64,000 bases of DNA from an uncultured Christensenella sp. (GCA_964573405.1 CAZNJK010000001.1:29054-93053), one strand, 5' to 3'. Counted from the stretch's first letter, positions 5,432-64,000 are shown. A program made the numbers and translations. Notes: a model not told the origin generated them from the letters alone.

Positions 5432-6886
5432 ATGAGTAAAACTAAAAAAATCGTTAGTTTTGTACTAGTAGTTATTATGCTATTAGGTGTTGGTTTTGGC
5501 GCATATTTCTTATTTTCAAAGAAGAGTAAACTCACTGAAAAAAGAGCAATAAGTCTAGTAAGTGAAACCAGTAAAGAACTCAACACTGCAATCACTACAA
5601 TATGTAATGGTGTATCTGGCAAGACCAGTACTAGTACATTATCTGCTGCGAGTTCAGATGCAAATACAAGATTAAATGCTACATCTTCTACCGATATGAG
5701 TGATTATGTGAATTTTATTAAAATGGTAACTTTTTCAAATTCTTATCTAGAGATGGTTAATTTTACATTAGGTATGAGTGGTGATGATGCTATTGAATTT
5801 AATAAGACCTATTCTGGATTTACGATAGGTGCTCCAACTTATTTGACGCTATATTGCACTTCGGATTCAGTTGTATTTGAATTTGCTACAAAGGATGATG
5901 AAGGAGATGACCAGTCTTATTTTAATACATATGGCATTATTGATTATGACGAAGAAAATGATCGACCATCCGCTTTTAATTTTATAATAATCGGTAATGA
6001 AAGTTCGGAATATGCTGGAGCAACAACTTATAACTTTTCAATGCGTATGTATTCAATTAATTTTGATTTAAAAACATTTAATTGTTATGAAGCATATATG
6101 TACAATTTTAATGAGTATAGTATTGTGAGAAATCTTAAAAACAAACTTGCAAAAGGCGAACTTAATTATGACGATATAAAAAATTATGTTGATTTCGACA
6201 ATGGTTATGATTTTTCTATTTATTCTGGGAATATTGCAGATCATGTTGATGACATAAAGATGGCTACGCATAAAGATTTGGTTTCTAGAAAAACACTTTT
6301 CAATACTTATAGTAAGACAATAAGCCACTTGGGAATTATCGCTGATAGCAAAATTGATTTTAATAGTATGGAGAACATATCAAATGTCAGTGGTGAGATA
6401 ATGCAATATTTTGCCGCTTCAAAGAATAGATATATGTGTGCAGTAGGTGACGGCAATAGATTGTGTTTTATTGATGCAACATCTTATGAAGGTTGGCAAG
6501 AATGGGATAGAATTCTTATCAACAAATTAAAAACATTGCTTAATGAAATGAGTGTTTCTGATGCCAATGGATCTATATATGACGGCCAAATAAAAATCAC
6601 TATTTCAAGTGGAACACCGGAAACTGAATTTAATTTATTAAAATCAACCGTAGATGCATTAGAAAATTACTACACAAGGCATAAGGATGATCAAAACTAT
6701 GTATCTCTTATGTTTGGAAGATGTGCAAGTAAAATGGATTTCCCTAGTGTGGGTTCTAAGGTTGTTGCTTATACTGATTTCGATAAGAATGAAGATTCGT
6801 TCACATATAGTGTTGGATGTGGCTCTCTAGAAGATTCAGCAACTTATTCAATCCGAGCAACTTTATATCTTGGTGACGGTAATTAA
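5432..6886 (+). CDS. Membrane-anchored/secreted hypothetical protein (484 aa)
   Basis: Basic N-terminus plus hydrophobic helix; AAGGAG RBS; terminator 6908-6935. Confidence 0.8.
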   Translation: MSKTKKIVSFVLVVIMLLGVGFGAYFLFSKKSKLTEKRAISLVSETSKELNTAITTICNGVSGKTSTSTLSAASSDANTRLNATSSTDMSDYVNFIKMVTFSNSYLEMVNFTLGMSGDDAIEFNKTYSGFTIGAPTYLTLYCTSDSVVFEFATKDDEGDDQSYFNTYGIIDYDEENDRPSAFNFIIIGNESSEYAGATTYNFSMRMYSINFDLKTFNCYEAYMYNFNEYSIVRNLKNKLAKGELNYDDIKNYVDFDNGYDFSIYSGNIADHVDDIKMATHKDLVSRKTLFNTYSKTISHLGIIADSKIDFNSMENISNVSGEIMQYFAASKNRYMCAVGDGNRLCFIDATSYEGWQEWDRILINKLKTLLNEMSVSDANGSIYDGQIKITISSGTPETEFNLLKSTVDALENYYTRHKDDQNYVSLMFGRCASKMDFPSVGSKVVAYTDFDKNEDSFTYSVGCGSLEDSATYSIRATLYLGDGN

Positions 6887-56968: not shown

Positions 56969-57619
56969 ATGTCGTTTTATTCAGGAACACCGCAATGCTG
57001 TTATCCGGGCCCTATCACAGGCAATGCATTGACTGGTCTATGCGAAAAAGCGTGCATTGAAGCCAAAAAAGTATTCGATGCGTGTATGAAGCAAATTCAA
57101 GAAACTGGGGTGGTGGCAACCGTCACCGAATACACTCCCGCTGACCCAACACTGCCACTTACATTTGTGAGTGCCACTTGCACCAGCGGAACAGTGCCCA
57201 TCTCAAACCTAACAATCAACCGCTTCGAAGACCGACCATGTTTTGCTAGAGTCACTGGCGAAGTGGATGTCCCAGTCACTATTACATACACCGACGCAAG
57301 CGGAACAACCGGCACCGCAACAACCACAATAGCAGTGGACGAAGATGTTGTACTATATGTGCCACAACCATCCGTCGTGCCATTTACAGTAGAAGCATTC
57401 GCAACATGTATGGGGGTGGACGGCGACTACACCGGCGAAAACCAATTCACACTTAACGCATGCATCACGCTTATCCTAAAAGTTGTTTCAACCGTCGATA
57501 TGCTTGTGCCAAGTTACGGCTACGCAAAAATCCCGCCTTGCCAAGAATTTACGCAAGATGTGTGTACGGGCTTCTTCGACTTGCCACTGTACCCAACCCA
57601 AAACCCAGTATGCGACTAG
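56969..57619 (+). CDS. Cys/Thr/Pro-rich protein, probable spore coat component
   Basis: CEKACIEAKKVFDAC and many further Cys; strong AAGGAGG RBS; sigma-K-like promoter; terminator 57626-57648. Confidence 0.6.
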   Translation: MSFYSGTPQCCYPGPITGNALTGLCEKACIEAKKVFDACMKQIQETGVVATVTEYTPADPTLPLTFVSATCTSGTVPISNLTINRFEDRPCFARVTGEVDVPVTITYTDASGTTGTATTTIAVDEDVVLYVPQPSVVPFTVEAFATCMGVDGDYTGENQFTLNACITLILKVVSTVDMLVPSYGYAKIPPCQEFTQDVCTGFFDLPLYPTQNPVCD

Positions 57620-57649
57620 CATATGCCGACCACAAGGTCGGTTTTTTTA

Positions 57650-57828
57650 TCTGAAAAAGTCGGAAATAATCTAAAATCATCGGAAATAATCTAAAATCAT
57701 CGGAAATAATCTGAAAACATCTAAAATCATCTGAAAAGATTTGAGAATGTCGGAAATTGTCGGATAAAAAATACCCGAAATTGTCTAAAATCATCTGAAA
57801 TCATCTGAAATCATCGGAAATTGTCGGA
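57650..57828. repeat. Array of ~17 degenerate 10-bp tandem repeats, consensus C(G/T)(G/A)AAAT(C/A/T)(A/G)T
   Basis: Units in register at 57651-57770, then 57775-57828. Confidence 0.93.
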
Positions 57829-57977
57829 CGGCATATTATTTTATATAATATAAATATATGATATATTCTATATAATATATTATATGTCGCAAATATGATT
57901 TGAAAAAACACATCAAAATATTTGTGAAAGCCACTCCAAAATGATATAATAAAATTTAAAGAAAAGGAGTTGGACTT

Positions 57978-58673
57978 GTGAAAGTATTTAGTATAAGTGA
58001 CTTGCATTTGAGTATCAATAGTAACAAGCCTATGAATATCTTCGGGCCGGTGTGGGAAAACTACCTTGAAGAAATAGAGCAGTCGTGGAACGACCAAGTA
58101 GGCGACAACGATGTCGTTCTTATAGCGGGCGACATCTCGTGGGCAATGAAGTTTGAGGACGCCATCCCCGACCTTGAGTATATATCGCGTCTAAAAGGGT
58201 ACAAAGTCATCATTCGTGGCAACCACGACTACTGGTGGAAGAGTATATCGAGCCTAAGAAGTGAACTTCCGCACAAGATGTTCGCTCTCCAAAACGACGC
58301 AATGAAAATAGACAACATCATCATTTGCGGTACTCGTGGCTGGGTAGTCCCCGAAACAACGCACAAAACCGCCGATGACGAAAAGATATATAACCGCGAA
58401 ATTATCCGCCTAGAACTTAGCCTAAAGAATGCGGTGCGACTAAAAGAAGACGGCGACATTATAGTGTGTATGATGCATTACCCACCGTTCAATTCCCGCC
58501 TAGACGATAGCGACTACACCCGCCTTATGGACAAGTACGGCGTAAACTACTGTGTGTATGGGCACTTGCATAGTTACGACAAAAAACAACAACTTGTGAC
58601 TATAAAGAACAACACAAAATACTTCCTTACAAGTTGCGATTTAGTAAAAAATAAATTGATTCAAATAATTTAA
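57978..58673 (+). CDS. Metallophosphoesterase (calcineurin-like)
   Basis: SDLH, AGD, RGNHD, MHYPP, YGHLH. Confidence 0.93.
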   Translation: MKVFSISDLHLSINSNKPMNIFGPVWENYLEEIEQSWNDQVGDNDVVLIAGDISWAMKFEDAIPDLEYISRLKGYKVIIRGNHDYWWKSISSLRSELPHKMFALQNDAMKIDNIIICGTRGWVVPETTHKTADDEKIYNREIIRLELSLKNAVRLKEDGDIIVCMMHYPPFNSRLDDSDYTRLMDKYGVNYCVYGHLHSYDKKQQLVTIKNNTKYFLTSCDLVKNKLIQII

Positions 58674-58728
58674 TTTACAAAGTTTTGAAATTATAGTATT
58701 ATAATTAAAATTGTGTAGTAGGGGAATA

Positions 58729-59505
58729 ATGGAAAGAAAGAACAAATTACAATCCAATCGTCGCGCCAATGCACGCTATGTGCTTGTTCTTTCTTGCGTG
58801 CTAGTGCTAGCCGTAGTGCTTACTTTTGGCATTACACTATCTTACTTCGGCGGAAATTCAAAAGGCTACTCGGTGGATTTCGTCCTAAAAGCGGGCATCC
58901 AGTTTAAAGCCAACGAATCGGGCTCCGACTACCAGTCCCTTACATTTGATTCCGAATACCTTGTTCCGGGCACAACCCTTAACTCCACTTGCAAACTCAC
59001 CGTTAGTTCACTATCCAGCGACACATCAATTCCGTCAGTCAACGGGCTTCTTAGAGCCAACTTCTCGCTAGATGGCGATATGGCTAACTTCATCGAACTT
59101 AATTACTCCGAGTCGGACCCTATATATGTGTACCTAGGCACGACCGCAGAGAGTATGACCGAAGCAAATAAAGTGGCTCGTCTTGTAAAAGCCCAAGACG
59201 AAGACTCATACTTCTACCTAGTAGGCACGGACTCTACCGAAATTACAAACAACACACTGCTTTATGAAATCCCATGCACTTCAAATAACGGGGAAGTGGG
59301 CTTAATATTCAACCTATCATTCACCGTCCTTAATGAGTACGGCTCCAAATTGTTTAATAACGACTACGCTACAAAAAAAGCCCAACTCAACGCAAACTTC
59401 ACCGTAATACAATCGGAATTCTATTCGGCAGGCAATCCAACGCCGTTGCCACAGACCTACCGCAACGCAAAAGCAGTGTTTGACGATGTAACCAGTTCAA
59501 CTTAA
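58729..59505 (+). CDS. TasA/CalY-like protein 1 with SipW-type signal peptide
   Basis: Basic N-region, hydrophobic helix, ITLSYFGG; C-terminal FTVIQ. Confidence 0.7.
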   Translation: MERKNKLQSNRRANARYVLVLSCVLVLAVVLTFGITLSYFGGNSKGYSVDFVLKAGIQFKANESGSDYQSLTFDSEYLVPGTTLNSTCKLTVSSLSSDTSIPSVNGLLRANFSLDGDMANFIELNYSESDPIYVYLGTTAESMTEANKVARLVKAQDEDSYFYLVGTDSTEITNNTLLYEIPCTSNNGEVGLIFNLSFTVLNEYGSKLFNNDYATKKAQLNANFTVIQSEFYSAGNPTPLPQTYRNAKAVFDDVTSST

Positions 59506-59691
59506 AAAAAATTCAGAAATTGCAATCATTTGTTTTACAATATCTCAAAAATTTGATATTATGTAAGTGTATATATGGTGGTGTAGTGCTACCTAATGTG
59601 TACAATATGCTCTTTTAAAATTTGACAAACCGCTAAATATAGGGATTTTAGCAGTTTATCACGGAAAATTAATAAAAGGTCAGAAGGAAAA

Positions 59692-60429
59692 ATGGATAAA
59701 AAAGAAATCAAAAAAAGGAAAAGAAGACGCAATAGACTTATCAAGACTTTCGTTCTTGTAGTGGCTCTTATTGTTGCCGTAGGTACTACGTTTGGCGTGA
59801 CTATGTCTTACTTCGGTGGAAAATCGGGTACTTCCACTTACGATATGGTCCTAAAAACCGGTCTTTATGTCAACAATGCTAATGCTGGCGGATCGGTGAG
59901 CAAAACCGCTTATGTTGTGCCTAGCCAAGTTATATCTGCTAATTGCCAAGTTAGTGTGAAGTCTGCTTCTAGTAAGACTGGTACGGCAAATACTGACGAT
60001 AGTGCTTCAGACGCACTTATTAGAGCAATCATTACATTCAGTAGCGAAGATGGTGTAAATGCTTCTCTTGGCGACTCAGCAAGTTTCCCAGTTTCGATAG
60101 GCGGTACAACTATAGGAAACTTCGTAAAATACACCGATGATAATTATTATTTGATTGCAAGTGGTACTTCTATTACAGATTCTACTTTAATGTATGTTGT
60201 AAAGACTAGCGAAGGCGAGAAGACATTGTCGTTCGATATGGTCGTAAGCATTCCATCAAGCCTTGACAATTCCGCTAGTGGCAAAAAAGTTACTTTAACA
60301 GTAACCTACCAAGTAATCCAAGCAGATTTCTTTAGCGGTAGTTCGACTGCGGTTAATAAAAGTGTTAAAAATGCAAAAACAATATTTGACGATACAAGCG
60401 TAAGCGGTGACGCATCATATACTGATTAA
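59692..60429 (+). CDS. TasA/CalY-like protein 2 with SipW-type signal peptide
   Basis: VTMSYFGG; YQVIQ; promoter TTTACA, 17 bp, TATTAT at 59534-62; terminator 60449-60484. Confidence 0.72.
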   Translation: MDKKEIKKRKRRRNRLIKTFVLVVALIVAVGTTFGVTMSYFGGKSGTSTYDMVLKTGLYVNNANAGGSVSKTAYVVPSQVISANCQVSVKSASSKTGTANTDDSASDALIRAIITFSSEDGVNASLGDSASFPVSIGGTTIGNFVKYTDDNYYLIASGTSITDSTLMYVVKTSEGEKTLSFDMVVSIPSSLDNSASGKKVTLTVTYQVIQADFFSGSSTAVNKSVKNAKTIFDDTSVSGDASYTD

Positions 60430-60941
60430 TATAATTAAATACTAAATTAAAGAATGTGAGTTATTTGCTTACATTCTTTTTTTTTAAAAAAAATAACAAT
60501 CCTCATTTATATAATCTTAAATAGAGTGATGTATATAGTGAATAATAATATATAATGTGCGATATATTATGTATATGATAAGGCTATATAAATAAAAACC
60601 TATATAATAATATATAACATTATACATAATACATAGTACTATATAATAATACATAGGGTTAATAAGTCAACTTATATTTATTTATATTTATACTTGGGAC
60701 TTGTGTAATTAAAAAAAGTATTTTAAACTCATTAATTTGTCGAAAATACAAATAAAATAAAAAATTTGAAACAAACTATATTAATCAATAAATTAACCAG
60801 CGGGGTAGTAATACTAAAAAAGTATGGTCACTTTGACCATAAAAACATTATAATTTTATAATTTTTTGAAAACCTTTGATTTTTTTGTCAACTTTTTGAA
60901 AGTTTTATAAAAATATGTCAAAATTCGTTTTACAAACTCGT

Positions 60942-61102
60942 GGTCTTTATGGTAATATATAGTTAATAAAAAAAGGAGAATATAAAATGGAAAACAAAAA
61001 CAAAAATAAAAAGAAATTGTTCGCTATCATCGGCGCTTCCGCTCTCGCTTTCGTGCTTACTATCGCTCTTAGCGTCTCTATCACTTTAGCTTATTTCGGT
61101 GG
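60942..61102 (+). repeat. 161-bp inverted repeat, left copy (extended -10, RBS, signal-peptide coding sequence)
   Basis: Identical to the reverse complement of 62415-62575 by manual comparison. Confidence 0.95.
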
Positions 61103-61643
61103 TACTGCTAGTGGAACATCTAGTGTAACATTAGGTGGTTCAGTATTCCTAGGTGATGCAAATAATCAATCAATTACCATGAATAGTGCTTATACTGGTG
61201 CAGTTCCTGGACAAAAAATTGATGTTACTGTAAATGGCACAGTTAAATCATCTTCTACACAAAATGCAGCAGTAATCTTACTTGTAAAAGGCGATGTTAC
61301 TCTTGATAGTACTACAACTGCTTGGACAAAATTAACAAGTGTTAAAGTTACTCAAGGTAGCGATAATTATACAGTATATGTATATGGTACTGAAAATAGC
61401 ATGACAGTAGTTAAAGCAACAGAATCTGGTGCTGAACTTACTCAATTCAAAGGAACTCAAACAGTTTCTACAACATTAGATAATGGTGAGGCAGATAGAG
61501 TAGTTACCGATGCTGCAGTTAGTGTTCAAATGATTGCTATTCAAAATGGTACAGAAAGTACTGACACAGCTAAATCATTCAGTAATTTGAAAGAAATTTT
61601 CCAAACTGTAGGAAACATTACATTTACTAACACTGCTGAATAA
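60987..61643 (+). CDS. TasA/CalY-like protein 3 with SipW-type signal peptide
   Basis: ITLAYFGG; MIAIQ; Thr/Ser-rich; strongly T/A-ending codons; terminator 61670-61705. Confidence 0.78.
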   Translation: MENKNKNKKKLFAIIGASALAFVLTIALSVSITLAYFGGTASGTSSVTLGGSVFLGDANNQSITMNSAYTGAVPGQKIDVTVNGTVKSSSTQNAAVILLVKGDVTLDSTTTAWTKLTSVKVTQGSDNYTVYVYGTENSMTVVKATESGAELTQFKGTQTVSTTLDNGEADRVVTDAAVSVQMIAIQNGTESTDTAKSFSNLKEIFQTVGNITFTNTAE

Positions 61644-61903
61644 TTTATAGTGCTTAATTAATTAAAAATAAAAGTATATTATATTTATATAATATACTTT
61701 TTTTTAATTAATATATAAGGTCTTAAATTTTATTCTTTCGGGGGGATTTTAACATTTTGCTACTCGCAAAATGTTCCGCTTAAAAACTACTCACTTTAAT
61801 TTAATCGCCACAATTAGTTATATCCACTTTAGTATGTTAAATAACATCTATGGCACAAAAAAATACTATTACATTGATTGTAATAGTATTTTTTATTTTA
61901 TAA

Positions 61904-62530
61904 TTAAGCAGCTGTGATTTGAATATTGGCGATATCTTCAACTACTGCTTCATAAGAACTTGCACTAGTTTGAAGTGTTGTACCTTCAGAATTATAAACA
62001 ACTTGTACTCTAACGAATGTTACAGTAACTTTCATAGTAGCACCAGCATCAGTATTAGTAAGTGCTGTACCTACTGTATCAGTATATGTAAGAGTTTTGT
62101 TTACTGCAGTTGTTCCAAGTTGAGTTACAGTACCAGCAGTACCAAGATAGTAAACATCATTACCATCAGCGTCAGTACCATACTTTGTCCAAGCACTATC
62201 GATTGTTGGGTTATTTTTGATACTTGTTCCAGTTGTTTCTACTCCAACTACTGCGAACAATACTGAATCAGTTGTTGAAGCTTCACCTTCTGCTGTAGCA
62301 GTTACAGTATATTTTTGTGTTGGGATAACTGTTTCTGGATTAGCTGTTACTGTAGCAGATTCATTCAACTTAACAGCAGCACCCAATGTAATTGTTGCAT
62401 TACCAGTACTTGTTCCACCGAAATAAGCTAAAGTGATAGAGACGCTAAGAGCGATAGTAAGCACGAAAGCGAGAGCGGAAGCGCCGATGATAGCGAACAA
62501 TTTCTTTTTATTTTTGTTTTTGTTTTCCAT
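61904..62530 (-). CDS. TasA/CalY-like protein 4 with SipW-type signal peptide (first 39 aa identical to protein 3)
   Basis: ITLAYFGG; FVRVQ; terminator 61857-61894. Confidence 0.78.
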   Translation of the reverse strand: MENKNKNKKKLFAIIGASALAFVLTIALSVSITLAYFGGTSTGNATITLGAAVKLNESATVTANPETVIPTQKYTVTATAEGEASTTDSVLFAVVGVETTGTSIKNNPTIDSAWTKYGTDADGNDVYYLGTAGTVTQLGTTAVNKTLTYTDTVGTALTNTDAGATMKVTVTFVRVQVVYNSEGTTLQTSASSYEAVVEDIANIQITAA

Positions 62531-62575
62531 TTTATATTCTCCTTTTTTTATTAACTATATATTACCATAAAGACC
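62415..62575 (-). repeat. 161-bp inverted repeat, right copy
   Basis: Reverse complement of 60942-61102. Confidence 0.95.
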
Positions 62576-62854
62576 TTAAATCTTTGTAAGAAAGGTATGT
62601 CTTTGATTTTTATAACTATTCAAAAATTGGCTTTACAAAGGTTTTGGCGGTGGGGGTAATATGCAAAAGAAGTATTTGTGGCTTAATTTAGCCATTTTTT
62701 GTATTATTTGGGATTTAAGATAAGAATAATTATTCAAAAATATTCAAAAAAATTTATAAATATACCATATTTTATTTGGAAGAAAATTAATTTGAGTGTA
62801 TAATTATAAGTGTATAGGGAAGGTAATTTCGCTATATAATGACATAGGGGAAAA

Positions 62855-63793
62855 ATGGAAACGACATTGGAATTTAATCACACCCCCGTAATGCTAAGAG
62901 AGTGCATAGAAGGGCTGAATATTAAGCCTGACGGAGTGTATGTGGACGGCACGCTTGGTGGAGCGGGACATAGCAGAGTGATAGCGAGCAAGCTTAGTGG
63001 TGGGACGCTTATATGTATAGATAAGGACAGTGACGCGCTTAAGGTTGCAGGCGAAAGGCTTAGCGAGTACGAGTGTGTAAGGCTAGTGAAGAGTGATTTT
63101 AAGGAATTTGCTAGCATTATGGACGAATTGGGAGTTGATGAAGTTGATGGAGTTTTGTTGGACCTAGGAGTAAGTAGTTATCAACTAGACACTGCTGATA
63201 GGGGGTTTTCTTATCGATTTGACGGGCCGTTGGATATGCGAATGGATAAGGAGAGTGATTTTAGTGCTTATAATGTGGTGAATGAGTACACTTTGGACGA
63301 GTTGGCAAGGGTGATAAGGGAGTTTGGTGAAGAGCAATTTGCTAGGAACATAGCGAAGAACATAGTAGCCGAGCGAGAGAAGGCGCCCATAACGACTACT
63401 GCAGAACTTAACGAGATTGTGGAAAGGAGCATTCCTAGGAAGTTGTGGGGGAAAGGAAGTGTAGCGAAGAAGACGTTTCAAGCCATAAGGATAGAAGTGA
63501 ACAACGAACTTCGTGGGCTTGACAAGGTGCTATATGACATTATAGGGAAGCTAAGAAAAGGCGGAAGGCTAGCGGTAATTACATTTCATAGTCTGGAAGA
63601 TAGGATTGTGAAAAATGTATTTAAGGACTGCGCTACTGGGTGCATATGTGATAAGAGCATACCTATATGTGTGTGCAATCATAAGGCGACGGTAAGGCTG
63701 GTGAATAAAAAACCGATTGAGGCGAGTGCGGAAGAACTTGGCGTAAATAAGCGAAGTGCGAGTGCGAAACTTAGGGTGGTTGAGAAAATTTAG
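62855..63793 (+). CDS. rsmH: 16S rRNA m4C1402 methyltransferase RsmH (MraW)
   Basis: HTPVML, DGTLGGAGHS, DLGVSSYQLD, LDMRMD, FQAIRIEVN, ITFHSLEDR, SAKLR. Confidence 0.98.
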   Translation: METTLEFNHTPVMLRECIEGLNIKPDGVYVDGTLGGAGHSRVIASKLSGGTLICIDKDSDALKVAGERLSEYECVRLVKSDFKEFASIMDELGVDEVDGVLLDLGVSSYQLDTADRGFSYRFDGPLDMRMDKESDFSAYNVVNEYTLDELARVIREFGEEQFARNIAKNIVAEREKAPITTTAELNEIVERSIPRKLWGKGSVAKKTFQAIRIEVNNELRGLDKVLYDIIGKLRKGGRLAVITFHSLEDRIVKNVFKDCATGCICDKSIPICVCNHKATVRLVNKKPIEASAEELGVNKRSASAKLRVVEKI

Positions 63794-63810
63794 AAAAAGG
63801 AGAGAAAGAG

Positions 63811-64000
63811 ATGGCAAAGTTGAAGAAGATAATGTTGCACGACAATATGATGACGGAAACTATGGACGACGAGTTGGTGACGACTGCTAAAACTGATAAT
63901 TTTAGCACCGATTACACTGCCGACAAGTTGAACGAACTTTACAATGAGTTTGATAGCATTACGCTTGACAATAGCGCGATTGACACGATAACGAAGCGGG
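63811..64000 (+). CDS. Partial hypothetical protein (FtsL position), runs off the right edge
   Basis: AAGGAG RBS, ATG 63811, no stop before 64000. Confidence 0.6.
   Translation, partial: MAKLKKIMLHDNMMTETMDDELVTTAKTDNFSTDYTADKLNELYNEFDSITLDNSAIDTITKR

Follow-up and report, generated by a model that had tools for sequence, protein, structure and literature searches.

The question raised by this locus is whether a long, perfect inverted repeat, shared by the 5′ ends of two convergent genes, can act as an inversion switch for surface proteins where no recombinase is encoded alongside. In this work, a 64,000-nucleotide (nt) stretch of DNA from an uncultured Christensenella sp. (GCA_964573405.1 CAZNJK010000001.1:29054-93053), called the window below, was analysed with emphasis on two oppositely oriented genes, gene 3 on the left and gene 4 on the right, and on the repeat arms that begin them (Table 1). 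The genome of the window is denoted G000; other G and L numbers denote related genomes and loci. We propose with moderate confidence that the locus is a functional homology-driven flip-flop, and at the same time a cassette-exchange site, for two hypervariable secreted, probably TasA-like surface proteins.

Direct comparison within the window showed that 60942-61102 and the reverse complement of 62415-62575 agree perfectly, at 161 of 161 positions, and a repeat search of the window gave the same arm pair as 203 nt with 91% identity. Outside the perfect 161 nt, arm-to-arm identity is ~48% in the next 60 nt inward and ~37% outward. Each arm consists of 45 nt of leader upstream of the ATG and the first 116 nt of the coding sequence (CDS). 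The leader contains TG-n-TAATAT, a TG-extended -10, and a GGAG ribosome-binding site (RBS), while the coding portion (MENKNKNKKKLFAIIGASALAFVLTIALSVSITLAYFGG) covers the signal peptide through ...LAYFGG and ends at the predicted cleavage site. The repeat occurs in exactly two copies in the whole genome, a metagenome-assembled genome (MAG) of 1.03 Mb in 26 contigs that is 92% complete. Genes 3 and 4 lie tail to tail, and their mature parts are only 33% identical. The first-pass annotation had described perfect 161-bp inverted repeats running from the leader and RBS through the signal-peptide codons to the predicted cleavage site, and between them two convergent, highly diverged mature domains, each with its own terminator; this description agrees with the sequence in every part, including the two terminator-like hairpins (z of -4.8 and -5.1). 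It had also argued that a crossover anywhere in the arms would leave two intact genes with swapped upstream regions, and the geometry of the repeat bears this out.

The same architecture was found in other members of the genus, for which a set of 41 species genomes was used, all of them MAGs of uncultured Clostridia of ~1.0-1.4 Mb (the two titled records are from Hadza and Nepal human-gut samples). Next to the 161 nt of G000, the perfect arm measures 154 nt in haplotype H1 of G021 (L015, L029), 151 nt in H2, the second haplotype of the G021 species (L023, L025), 152 nt in G008 (L016), and 169 nt in a G048-like species (L026, L027); in a sixth lineage, L041, the arms are ~150 nt long. All these lineages have two convergent genes with the arms at the same place, each with 39-52 nt of leader and 110-117 nt of CDS. 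The distant genus members L019, G046, G054, and G056 have a single gene or a tandem arrangement, without the repeat.

The orientation of the segment between the arms differs even within one species, a sister species to that of G000. The flanks of H2 (L025) and H1 (L015) share 97.8% identity across 5111 nt and 99.1% across 4175 nt, and this high identity continues through the arms, whereas an alignment of the middle is obtained only when one of the two is reversed (75.7% across 1152 nt and 85.9% across 262 nt). In a maximum-likelihood tree of the mature domains, clade A1 (support 96/96) holds the left position in G000 and H2 and the right position in H1, and clade B (support 86/97) is on the left in G008, H1, and the single-gene locus L019 and on the right in H2 and L041. 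Because clades A1 and B each occupy both positions in different lineages, both cassette types have evidently changed sides more than once, and the phylogeny and alignments indicate that the middle segment has inverted in evolution. The comparison among strains and MAGs that had been proposed as a check on the first-pass annotation thus recovered both orientations, between the conspecific H1 and H2 as well as across lineages.

It could be objected that the repeat, or the orientation of the middle, was made by the metagenome assembler. The source genome is a MAG in many contigs, the assembly graph by itself cannot give the orientation at a repeat that exceeds the k-mer, and public assemblies often break at the arms (L028; the contig end of G048). 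However, the same structure is present in at least six independently assembled lineages, and both genes use the repeat itself as coding sequence. When the same strains were assembled with other pipelines, the orientation did not change (L029 = L015, L024 = L025, L027 = L026; 99.98-100% identity), and for H1 the junction between the right flank and the A gene is also found on L030, a separate contig of low coverage. Since independent assemblies of the same strains agree, the orientation calls are not arbitrary. The conserved architecture in independent lineages and the agreeing re-assemblies led us to reject an assembly artefact as highly improbable.

The arms are identical within every genome and different between genomes, largely at synonymous sites. 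For example, the arms of H1 and H2 differ by TCA/TCT, by GCA/GCC, and by one extra A in the leader, and each of these changes is found in both arms of its genome. Because substitutions between genomes occur in both arms of each genome, the arms undergo concerted evolution, which requires repeated recombination between them. Between species, the arms are 82-85% identical, while the flanking phosphoesterase and rsmH genes reach only 65-73%. For a leader and signal peptide, such identity between species is unusually high; the signals of the neighbouring paralogues g1 and g2 vary much more.

If the arms recombine, the enzyme responsible has to be sought. No recombinase was found in the window region examined or within the fetched flanks (5 kb or more) of nine loci, and no serine recombinase in the G000 genome, which has three tyrosine recombinase matches (two intact genes and a fragment at a contig end). 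A 352-aa Xer-like gene beside lexA is present in 27 of 27 good genus genomes, repeat-bearing or not, and this genus-wide housekeeping gene is the only tyrosine recombinase shared by all repeat-bearing genomes. A 390-aa integrase on contig 7 is patchy in the genus and absent from the repeat-bearing G021, whose only tyrosine recombinases are the Xer-like gene and one distant integrase. The earlier statement that the window holds no recombinase was therefore correct, and it can be extended to the relatives, where none lies nearby or is co-distributed with the repeat. A dedicated invertase was rejected on these grounds: there is no serine recombinase, the contig 7 integrase is patchy and missing from G021, and the Xer-like gene occurs throughout the genus.

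A related explanation is that the Xer-like enzyme or an unlinked integrase acts in trans at a short core site hidden in the repeat, the long identity being secondary. Enzymes of the Xer type drive surface-antigen inversions in the small-genome Mollicutes; one report describes Vpma with Xer1 in Mycoplasma agalactiae (PMC5634654), and Ureaplasma mba is another Mollicute precedent of surface-antigen inversion (PMC3047005). In addition to the two intact tyrosine recombinase genes and the fragment elsewhere in the genome, this explanation can draw on the outer edge of the arms, which lies at a common motif, GTATA[A/C]AAAACC, in most lineages outside G000. On the other hand, the G000 arm begins at a different sequence from the others, no lineage has a recombinase adjacent to the repeat, and neither of the candidate genes follows the repeat in its distribution, as described above. 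The arms are also much longer than such a mechanism needs: they measure 151-169 nt, compared with the ~15-40 bp crossover sites of site-specific invertase switches, so that arms of 150-170 nt far exceed the requirements of a core site. We consider action in trans quite unlikely. A RecA gene is present in G000 (466.8 bits). Because the arms are ~160 nt long, evolve in concert, and have no linked enzyme, the sequence data point to general homologous recombination acting on them.

The consequence of inversion would depend on what lies just outside the arms. On the left flank of seven related loci, TTTACA-17-TATAAT is present and stops ~5 nt short of the arm, and in most lineages outside G000 the start of the arm approximately coincides with the predicted transcript start. 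The right flank in all relatives is a recognisable degenerate copy in which the GTGCTAAATTTG box is kept and properly spaced -35 and -10 elements are missing. This box (GTCAAAATTCG in G000), examined at 60905-60935 and 62590-62640 of the window and in the flanks of L015, L016, L026, and L041, precedes the promoter region on the left as well as that on the right in relatives, despite the decay of the remaining right flank; it may be a regulator site or an UP element. The G000 arm extends further upstream than those of the relatives and includes the TG-extended TAATAT. In the window, the left promoter-like site was called by the promoter scan, and the right one was read from the sequence. From this asymmetry, we infer that inversion would move each mature domain between a canonical and a poorer promoter.

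Conspecific cassettes are only 47-57% identical in protein, a divergence comparable to that between species (57.6% for the left cassettes of G000 and H2). Because conspecific cassettes are as divergent as those of different species, they would be either ancient balanced alleles or cassettes exchanged between lineages. Moreover, the right-hand gene and most of its arm are missing in strains of two species, namely in L043 and L044 (compared with G008) and in L042 (compared with L041). The deletion junction of L043 and L044 (L043 5900-5960) shows a TATTTTTTT microhomology between the terminator of the left gene and the leader of the right gene, and the region of L042 that lacks the right-hand gene is at 5950-5965. 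The hypervariability of the cassettes between conspecific strains and the absence of the right-hand gene from some of them are new here. Given these two features, cassette exchange at the level of the population describes the locus at least as well as phase switching does.

We hypothesize that the locus works as follows. RecA-type recombination between the inverted 161-bp arms would keep the arms identical by gene conversion, and resolution by crossover would invert the 1.3-kb middle while both genes stay intact. Inversion would move each mature-domain cassette to the other upstream region, of which the left has a canonical sigma-A promoter that is conserved, and the right a degenerate copy that is probably weaker or under different control. 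After inversion, the variant made in quantity would change. The arms could also serve as homology anchors by which whole cassettes are replaced between strains in either orientation, since an incoming arm-middle-arm unit could recombine into the chromosome either way round. This would mean that inversion recurs within populations, that it depends on RecA, and that the two promoters differ in output.

Several points weigh against such a switch. With arms of ~160 bp, RecA-type inversion should happen rarely in any one generation, a slow pace compared with classical phase switches. Both arms of G000 contain the -10, and transcription of both genes may therefore occur whichever way the segment points. 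The gene pair is dispensable, since some strains do without its right-hand member. One cassette occurring in both orientations, the mark of a recent flip, was sought, and all repeated recoveries were of the same strain in the same orientation. Every haplotype recovered repeatedly has one orientation, and its copies are 99.98-100% identical and hardly independent; because the same strain is seen each time, these recoveries say nothing about the flip rate. Finally, the flipped haplotypes carry long-diverged cassettes (76% identity in DNA), so the flip may be old, or may have come about through cassette import and not through switching in place.

An alternative is passive concerted evolution: an inverted duplication of the fibre gene would have left two paralogues, gene conversion would make their 5′ ends uniform, and diversifying selection would maintain the difference between the mature parts. 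Any inversions would then be rare evolutionary accidents without a regulatory role, and both genes would always be expressed. Besides the -10 within both arms of G000, the constant orientation of each recovered haplotype, the age of the flipped alleles, and the loss of the right-hand gene in some strains, it fits this explanation that neither gene is truncated and that each has an RBS, a start, a -10, and a terminator, and that sharp edges of identity can arise where heterology blocks conversion tracts. It accounts less well for arms that have stayed perfect, within almost the same boundaries, in six lineages with flanking genes of only 65-73% identity, for an outer edge that in most lineages outside G000 falls at the predicted transcript start, for promoters just outside the arms that are consistently strong on the left and degenerate on the right, and for the fact that both cassette clades have switched sides more than once. 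We regard passive concerted evolution as less likely than the flip-flop, yet as a rival to be taken seriously.

The homology-driven flip-flop and cassette-exchange site that we favour can be extended to a more far-reaching proposal, which we put forward only tentatively. In these reduced-genome gut Clostridia, the locus could be a recombinase-free, self-maintaining antigen flip-flop whose arms are held base-perfect as the recombination substrate. Inversion would exchange two hypervariable variants of a TasA-like fibre between a strong and a weak promoter within the population, and the arms would in addition be a universal docking sequence for the trade of cassettes between strains and species in either orientation. 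Self-maintenance together with docking would explain why the arms (82-85%) are more conserved across species than housekeeping genes (65-73%).

As to what the two genes encode, neither Pfam nor NCBIfam placed the four paralogues in the window (genes 3 and 4, g1, and g2) in a family, even at E <= 10; in particular, none of the four matches the Pfam family PF12389 (Peptidase_M73/camelysin) at that threshold. Among 48 homologues, PF12389 matches one (E = 0.095), and the NCBIfam model TIGR04088 of the SipW-cognate signal peptide, which matches no window protein, matches two (best E = 0.0047). By eye only, the signal motif ...TLAYFGG resembles the SipW-cognate class. A sequence-profile search of the PDB gave no match. 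AlphaFold models reached a predicted local distance difference test (pLDDT) of 84 for the full-length protein and, for the mature part alone, a pLDDT of 84 with a predicted template modelling score (pTM) of 0.81; in these models, the N-terminus is helical, a stretch behind the YFGG motif is disordered, and a beta-sandwich is formed. The top PDB match of the mature model was the Bacillus TasA fibre 8aur_A (E = 4e-4, match probability 1.0), a weak match with a template modelling (TM) score of 0.33, and the archaeal TasA-like bundling pilus 7ueg ranked third. The fold search with the full-length model gave no match at E <= 1e-3. The genome also encodes a SipW-type (archaeal or endoplasmic reticulum-type) signal peptidase I (TIGR02228, 73.5 bits against a cut-off of 51.85; G000:C13:26684-27094), on another contig and away from the locus.

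It is therefore plausible from the models that the products of genes 3 and 4 are TasA-like, and we infer that they form fibres. The designation as the major fibre subunit in the first-pass annotation is unsupported. The support for a TasA-like family is the weak top fold match; no profile hidden Markov model matched. Compared with the SipW-dependent fibre proteins TasA, CalY, and BsaA, for which sipW-bsaA of Clostridium perfringens served as the comparison fibre system (PMC7395162), the signal here ends in A-Y-F-G-G, resembling the A-x-F-x-D type. The beta-sandwich mature domain with a disordered N-terminal stretch, the several paralogues in a row, and a SipW-like peptidase in the genome are likewise shared. 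The differences are that the window proteins match neither Peptidase_M73 nor TIGR04088 and that sipW lies outside the locus. Proteins of 600-750 aa from other members of the genus (G019:C12, G022:C41, G004:C4, G015:C2, and others) begin with the same kind of signal peptide. Because these proteins start likewise, the signal class appears to serve a wider set of secreted proteins in the genus. A literature search found no inversion or long-repeat variation of TasA or BsaA, and to our knowledge none has been described.

In its working principle, the closest known system is sap of Campylobacter fetus, which Dworkin and Blaser reportedly described in 1996-97 as RecA-dependent inversion between oppositely oriented homologues for the surface layer (S-layer) protein with a conserved 5′ region. 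In both systems, oppositely oriented and divergent surface-protein genes have long 5′ homology without a dedicated invertase, the N-terminus is constant and the rest varies, and inversion changes the variant behind the effective promoter, an effect that is predicted here. In sap, the invertible segment carries a single promoter, the homologies measure ~600 bp, and as many as eight or nine cassettes without promoters are present; inversions can be nested. The present locus has only two cassettes, the promoters are outside the segment, the arms are ~160 bp, and both genes keep their start, RBS, and -10; the protein family, the host (Clostridia), and its phylum are also different.

Gene-altering programmed inversions generally use short sites and usually have a neighbouring recombinase. 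Like the present locus, the Moraxella tfpQ/I pilin genes with Piv, the Mu G segment with Gin, shufflons, and type I hsdS switches have repeats inside the CDS and join a constant N-terminal part to alternative C-terminal parts. However, the locus described here has two full-length genes, long arms that include the start codon and leader, and no linked recombinase. In a survey of such systems, they are described as typically made of one full gene and shorter promoterless partial copies and as showing "gene-pseudogene size asymmetry" (Milman et al., 2023, PMC9881135). For the hsdS genes of Streptococcus pneumoniae (Spn556II/SpnD39III), another report states that PsrA catalyses only one of three inversions and that deletion of recA or of any of 13 tested recombinase genes had no detectable effect (PMC4948785). 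This is a precedent for repeat-mediated inversion without a linked enzyme, even without RecA. The pneumococcal locus encodes a specificity subunit for restriction-modification and contains a recombinase, whereas here a secreted structural protein is encoded and the locus has no recombinase.

In uncultured gut Clostridia, surface-fibre and matrix proteins are likely to be targeted by phages and by the immunoglobulin A (IgA) of the host. If the proposed function is true, this compact, enzyme-free device would show how bacteria with ~1-Mb genomes keep antigenic flexibility, would extend inversion-based variation to TasA-like proteins, and would be a second, Gram-positive example of the rare homology-driven design of the sap type. 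Many public contigs with these genes are short (0.7-3 kb) and have an end within the arms (L028, L030, L021, L022, and the end of contig C4 of G048); L028 (1746 nt) is exactly arm-middle-arm. Because short-read assemblers break at the arms, MAGs probably contain this locus too rarely or show it in the wrong orientation, and the direction that a MAG gives for the middle is not to be trusted without spanning reads.

Table 1. Features of the repeat locus and its neighbouring paralogues, in window coordinates.
Feature	Position	Strand	Description
Left repeat arm	60942..61102	+	Leader of 45 nt, TG-extended -10 TAATAT at 60953-60958, GGAG RBS, 116 nt of CDS
Right repeat arm	62415..62575	-	Exact reverse complement of the left arm
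Segment between the arms, 1312 nt	61103..62414	.	Both mature-domain coding regions and both terminators; would be inverted by a crossover in the arms
Left promoter-like site	60929..60958	+	TTTACA-18-TAATAT with TG; called by promoter scan; -35 outside the arm
Right promoter-like site	62559..62589	-	Same -10 (in the arm), -35-like TTACAA 19 nt away, poorer spacing; read from the sequence, not called by the scan
Gene 3, left position, 218 aa	60987..61643	+	Secreted beta-sandwich protein (predicted), mature domain in clade A1
Gene 4, right position, 208 aa	61904..62530	-	First 38 residues the same as in gene 3; divergent mature domain, long branch near clade B
Terminator-like AU-rich hairpin and U-run, 3′ of gene 3	61653..61719	+	-18.8 kcal/mol, z = -4.84
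Terminator-like AU-rich hairpin and U-run, 3′ of gene 4	61858..61894	-	-14.7 kcal/mol, z = -5.08
Paralogue g1, same family	58729..59505	+	Own signal peptide ...LSYFGG; conserved between strains; outside the invertible unit
Paralogue g2, same family	59692..60429	+	Own signal ...MSYFGG; conserved between strains; outside the invertible unit

The paralogues g1 and g2 fall inside the flank that is 98% identical between conspecific strains. An Rfam scan of 57500-64000 at E <= 0.1 gave no match, and a riboswitch leader was rejected on this result. An exact-protein look-up with gene 3 and protein-pattern scans of metagenome and genome contig collections recovered no match or relative. A conserved 24-nt pattern from the arm matched only G008 and G021 in genome contigs and nothing in metagenome contigs.

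Further upstream, at 56969-57619, there is a conserved cysteine-rich open reading frame (ORF) of 216 aa (MSFYSG..CC..), the strand of which differs among species of the genus, with the + strand encoding it in G000 and L041 and the - strand in G021, G008, and L026. Inverted repeats around this ORF were not found; a phased 10-bp repeat array lies 3′ of it (57650-57828). On the other side of the locus, the distance from the right arm to rsmH is only 279 nt in G000 (62576-62854). Most of the related loci examined have two extra ORFs in this interval, one of 258-297 aa on the opposite strand and one of 152-174 aa just upstream of rsmH, of which only the latter is present in L026/L027. Judging from this comparison, G000 seems to have lost the extra ORFs between the right arm and rsmH.

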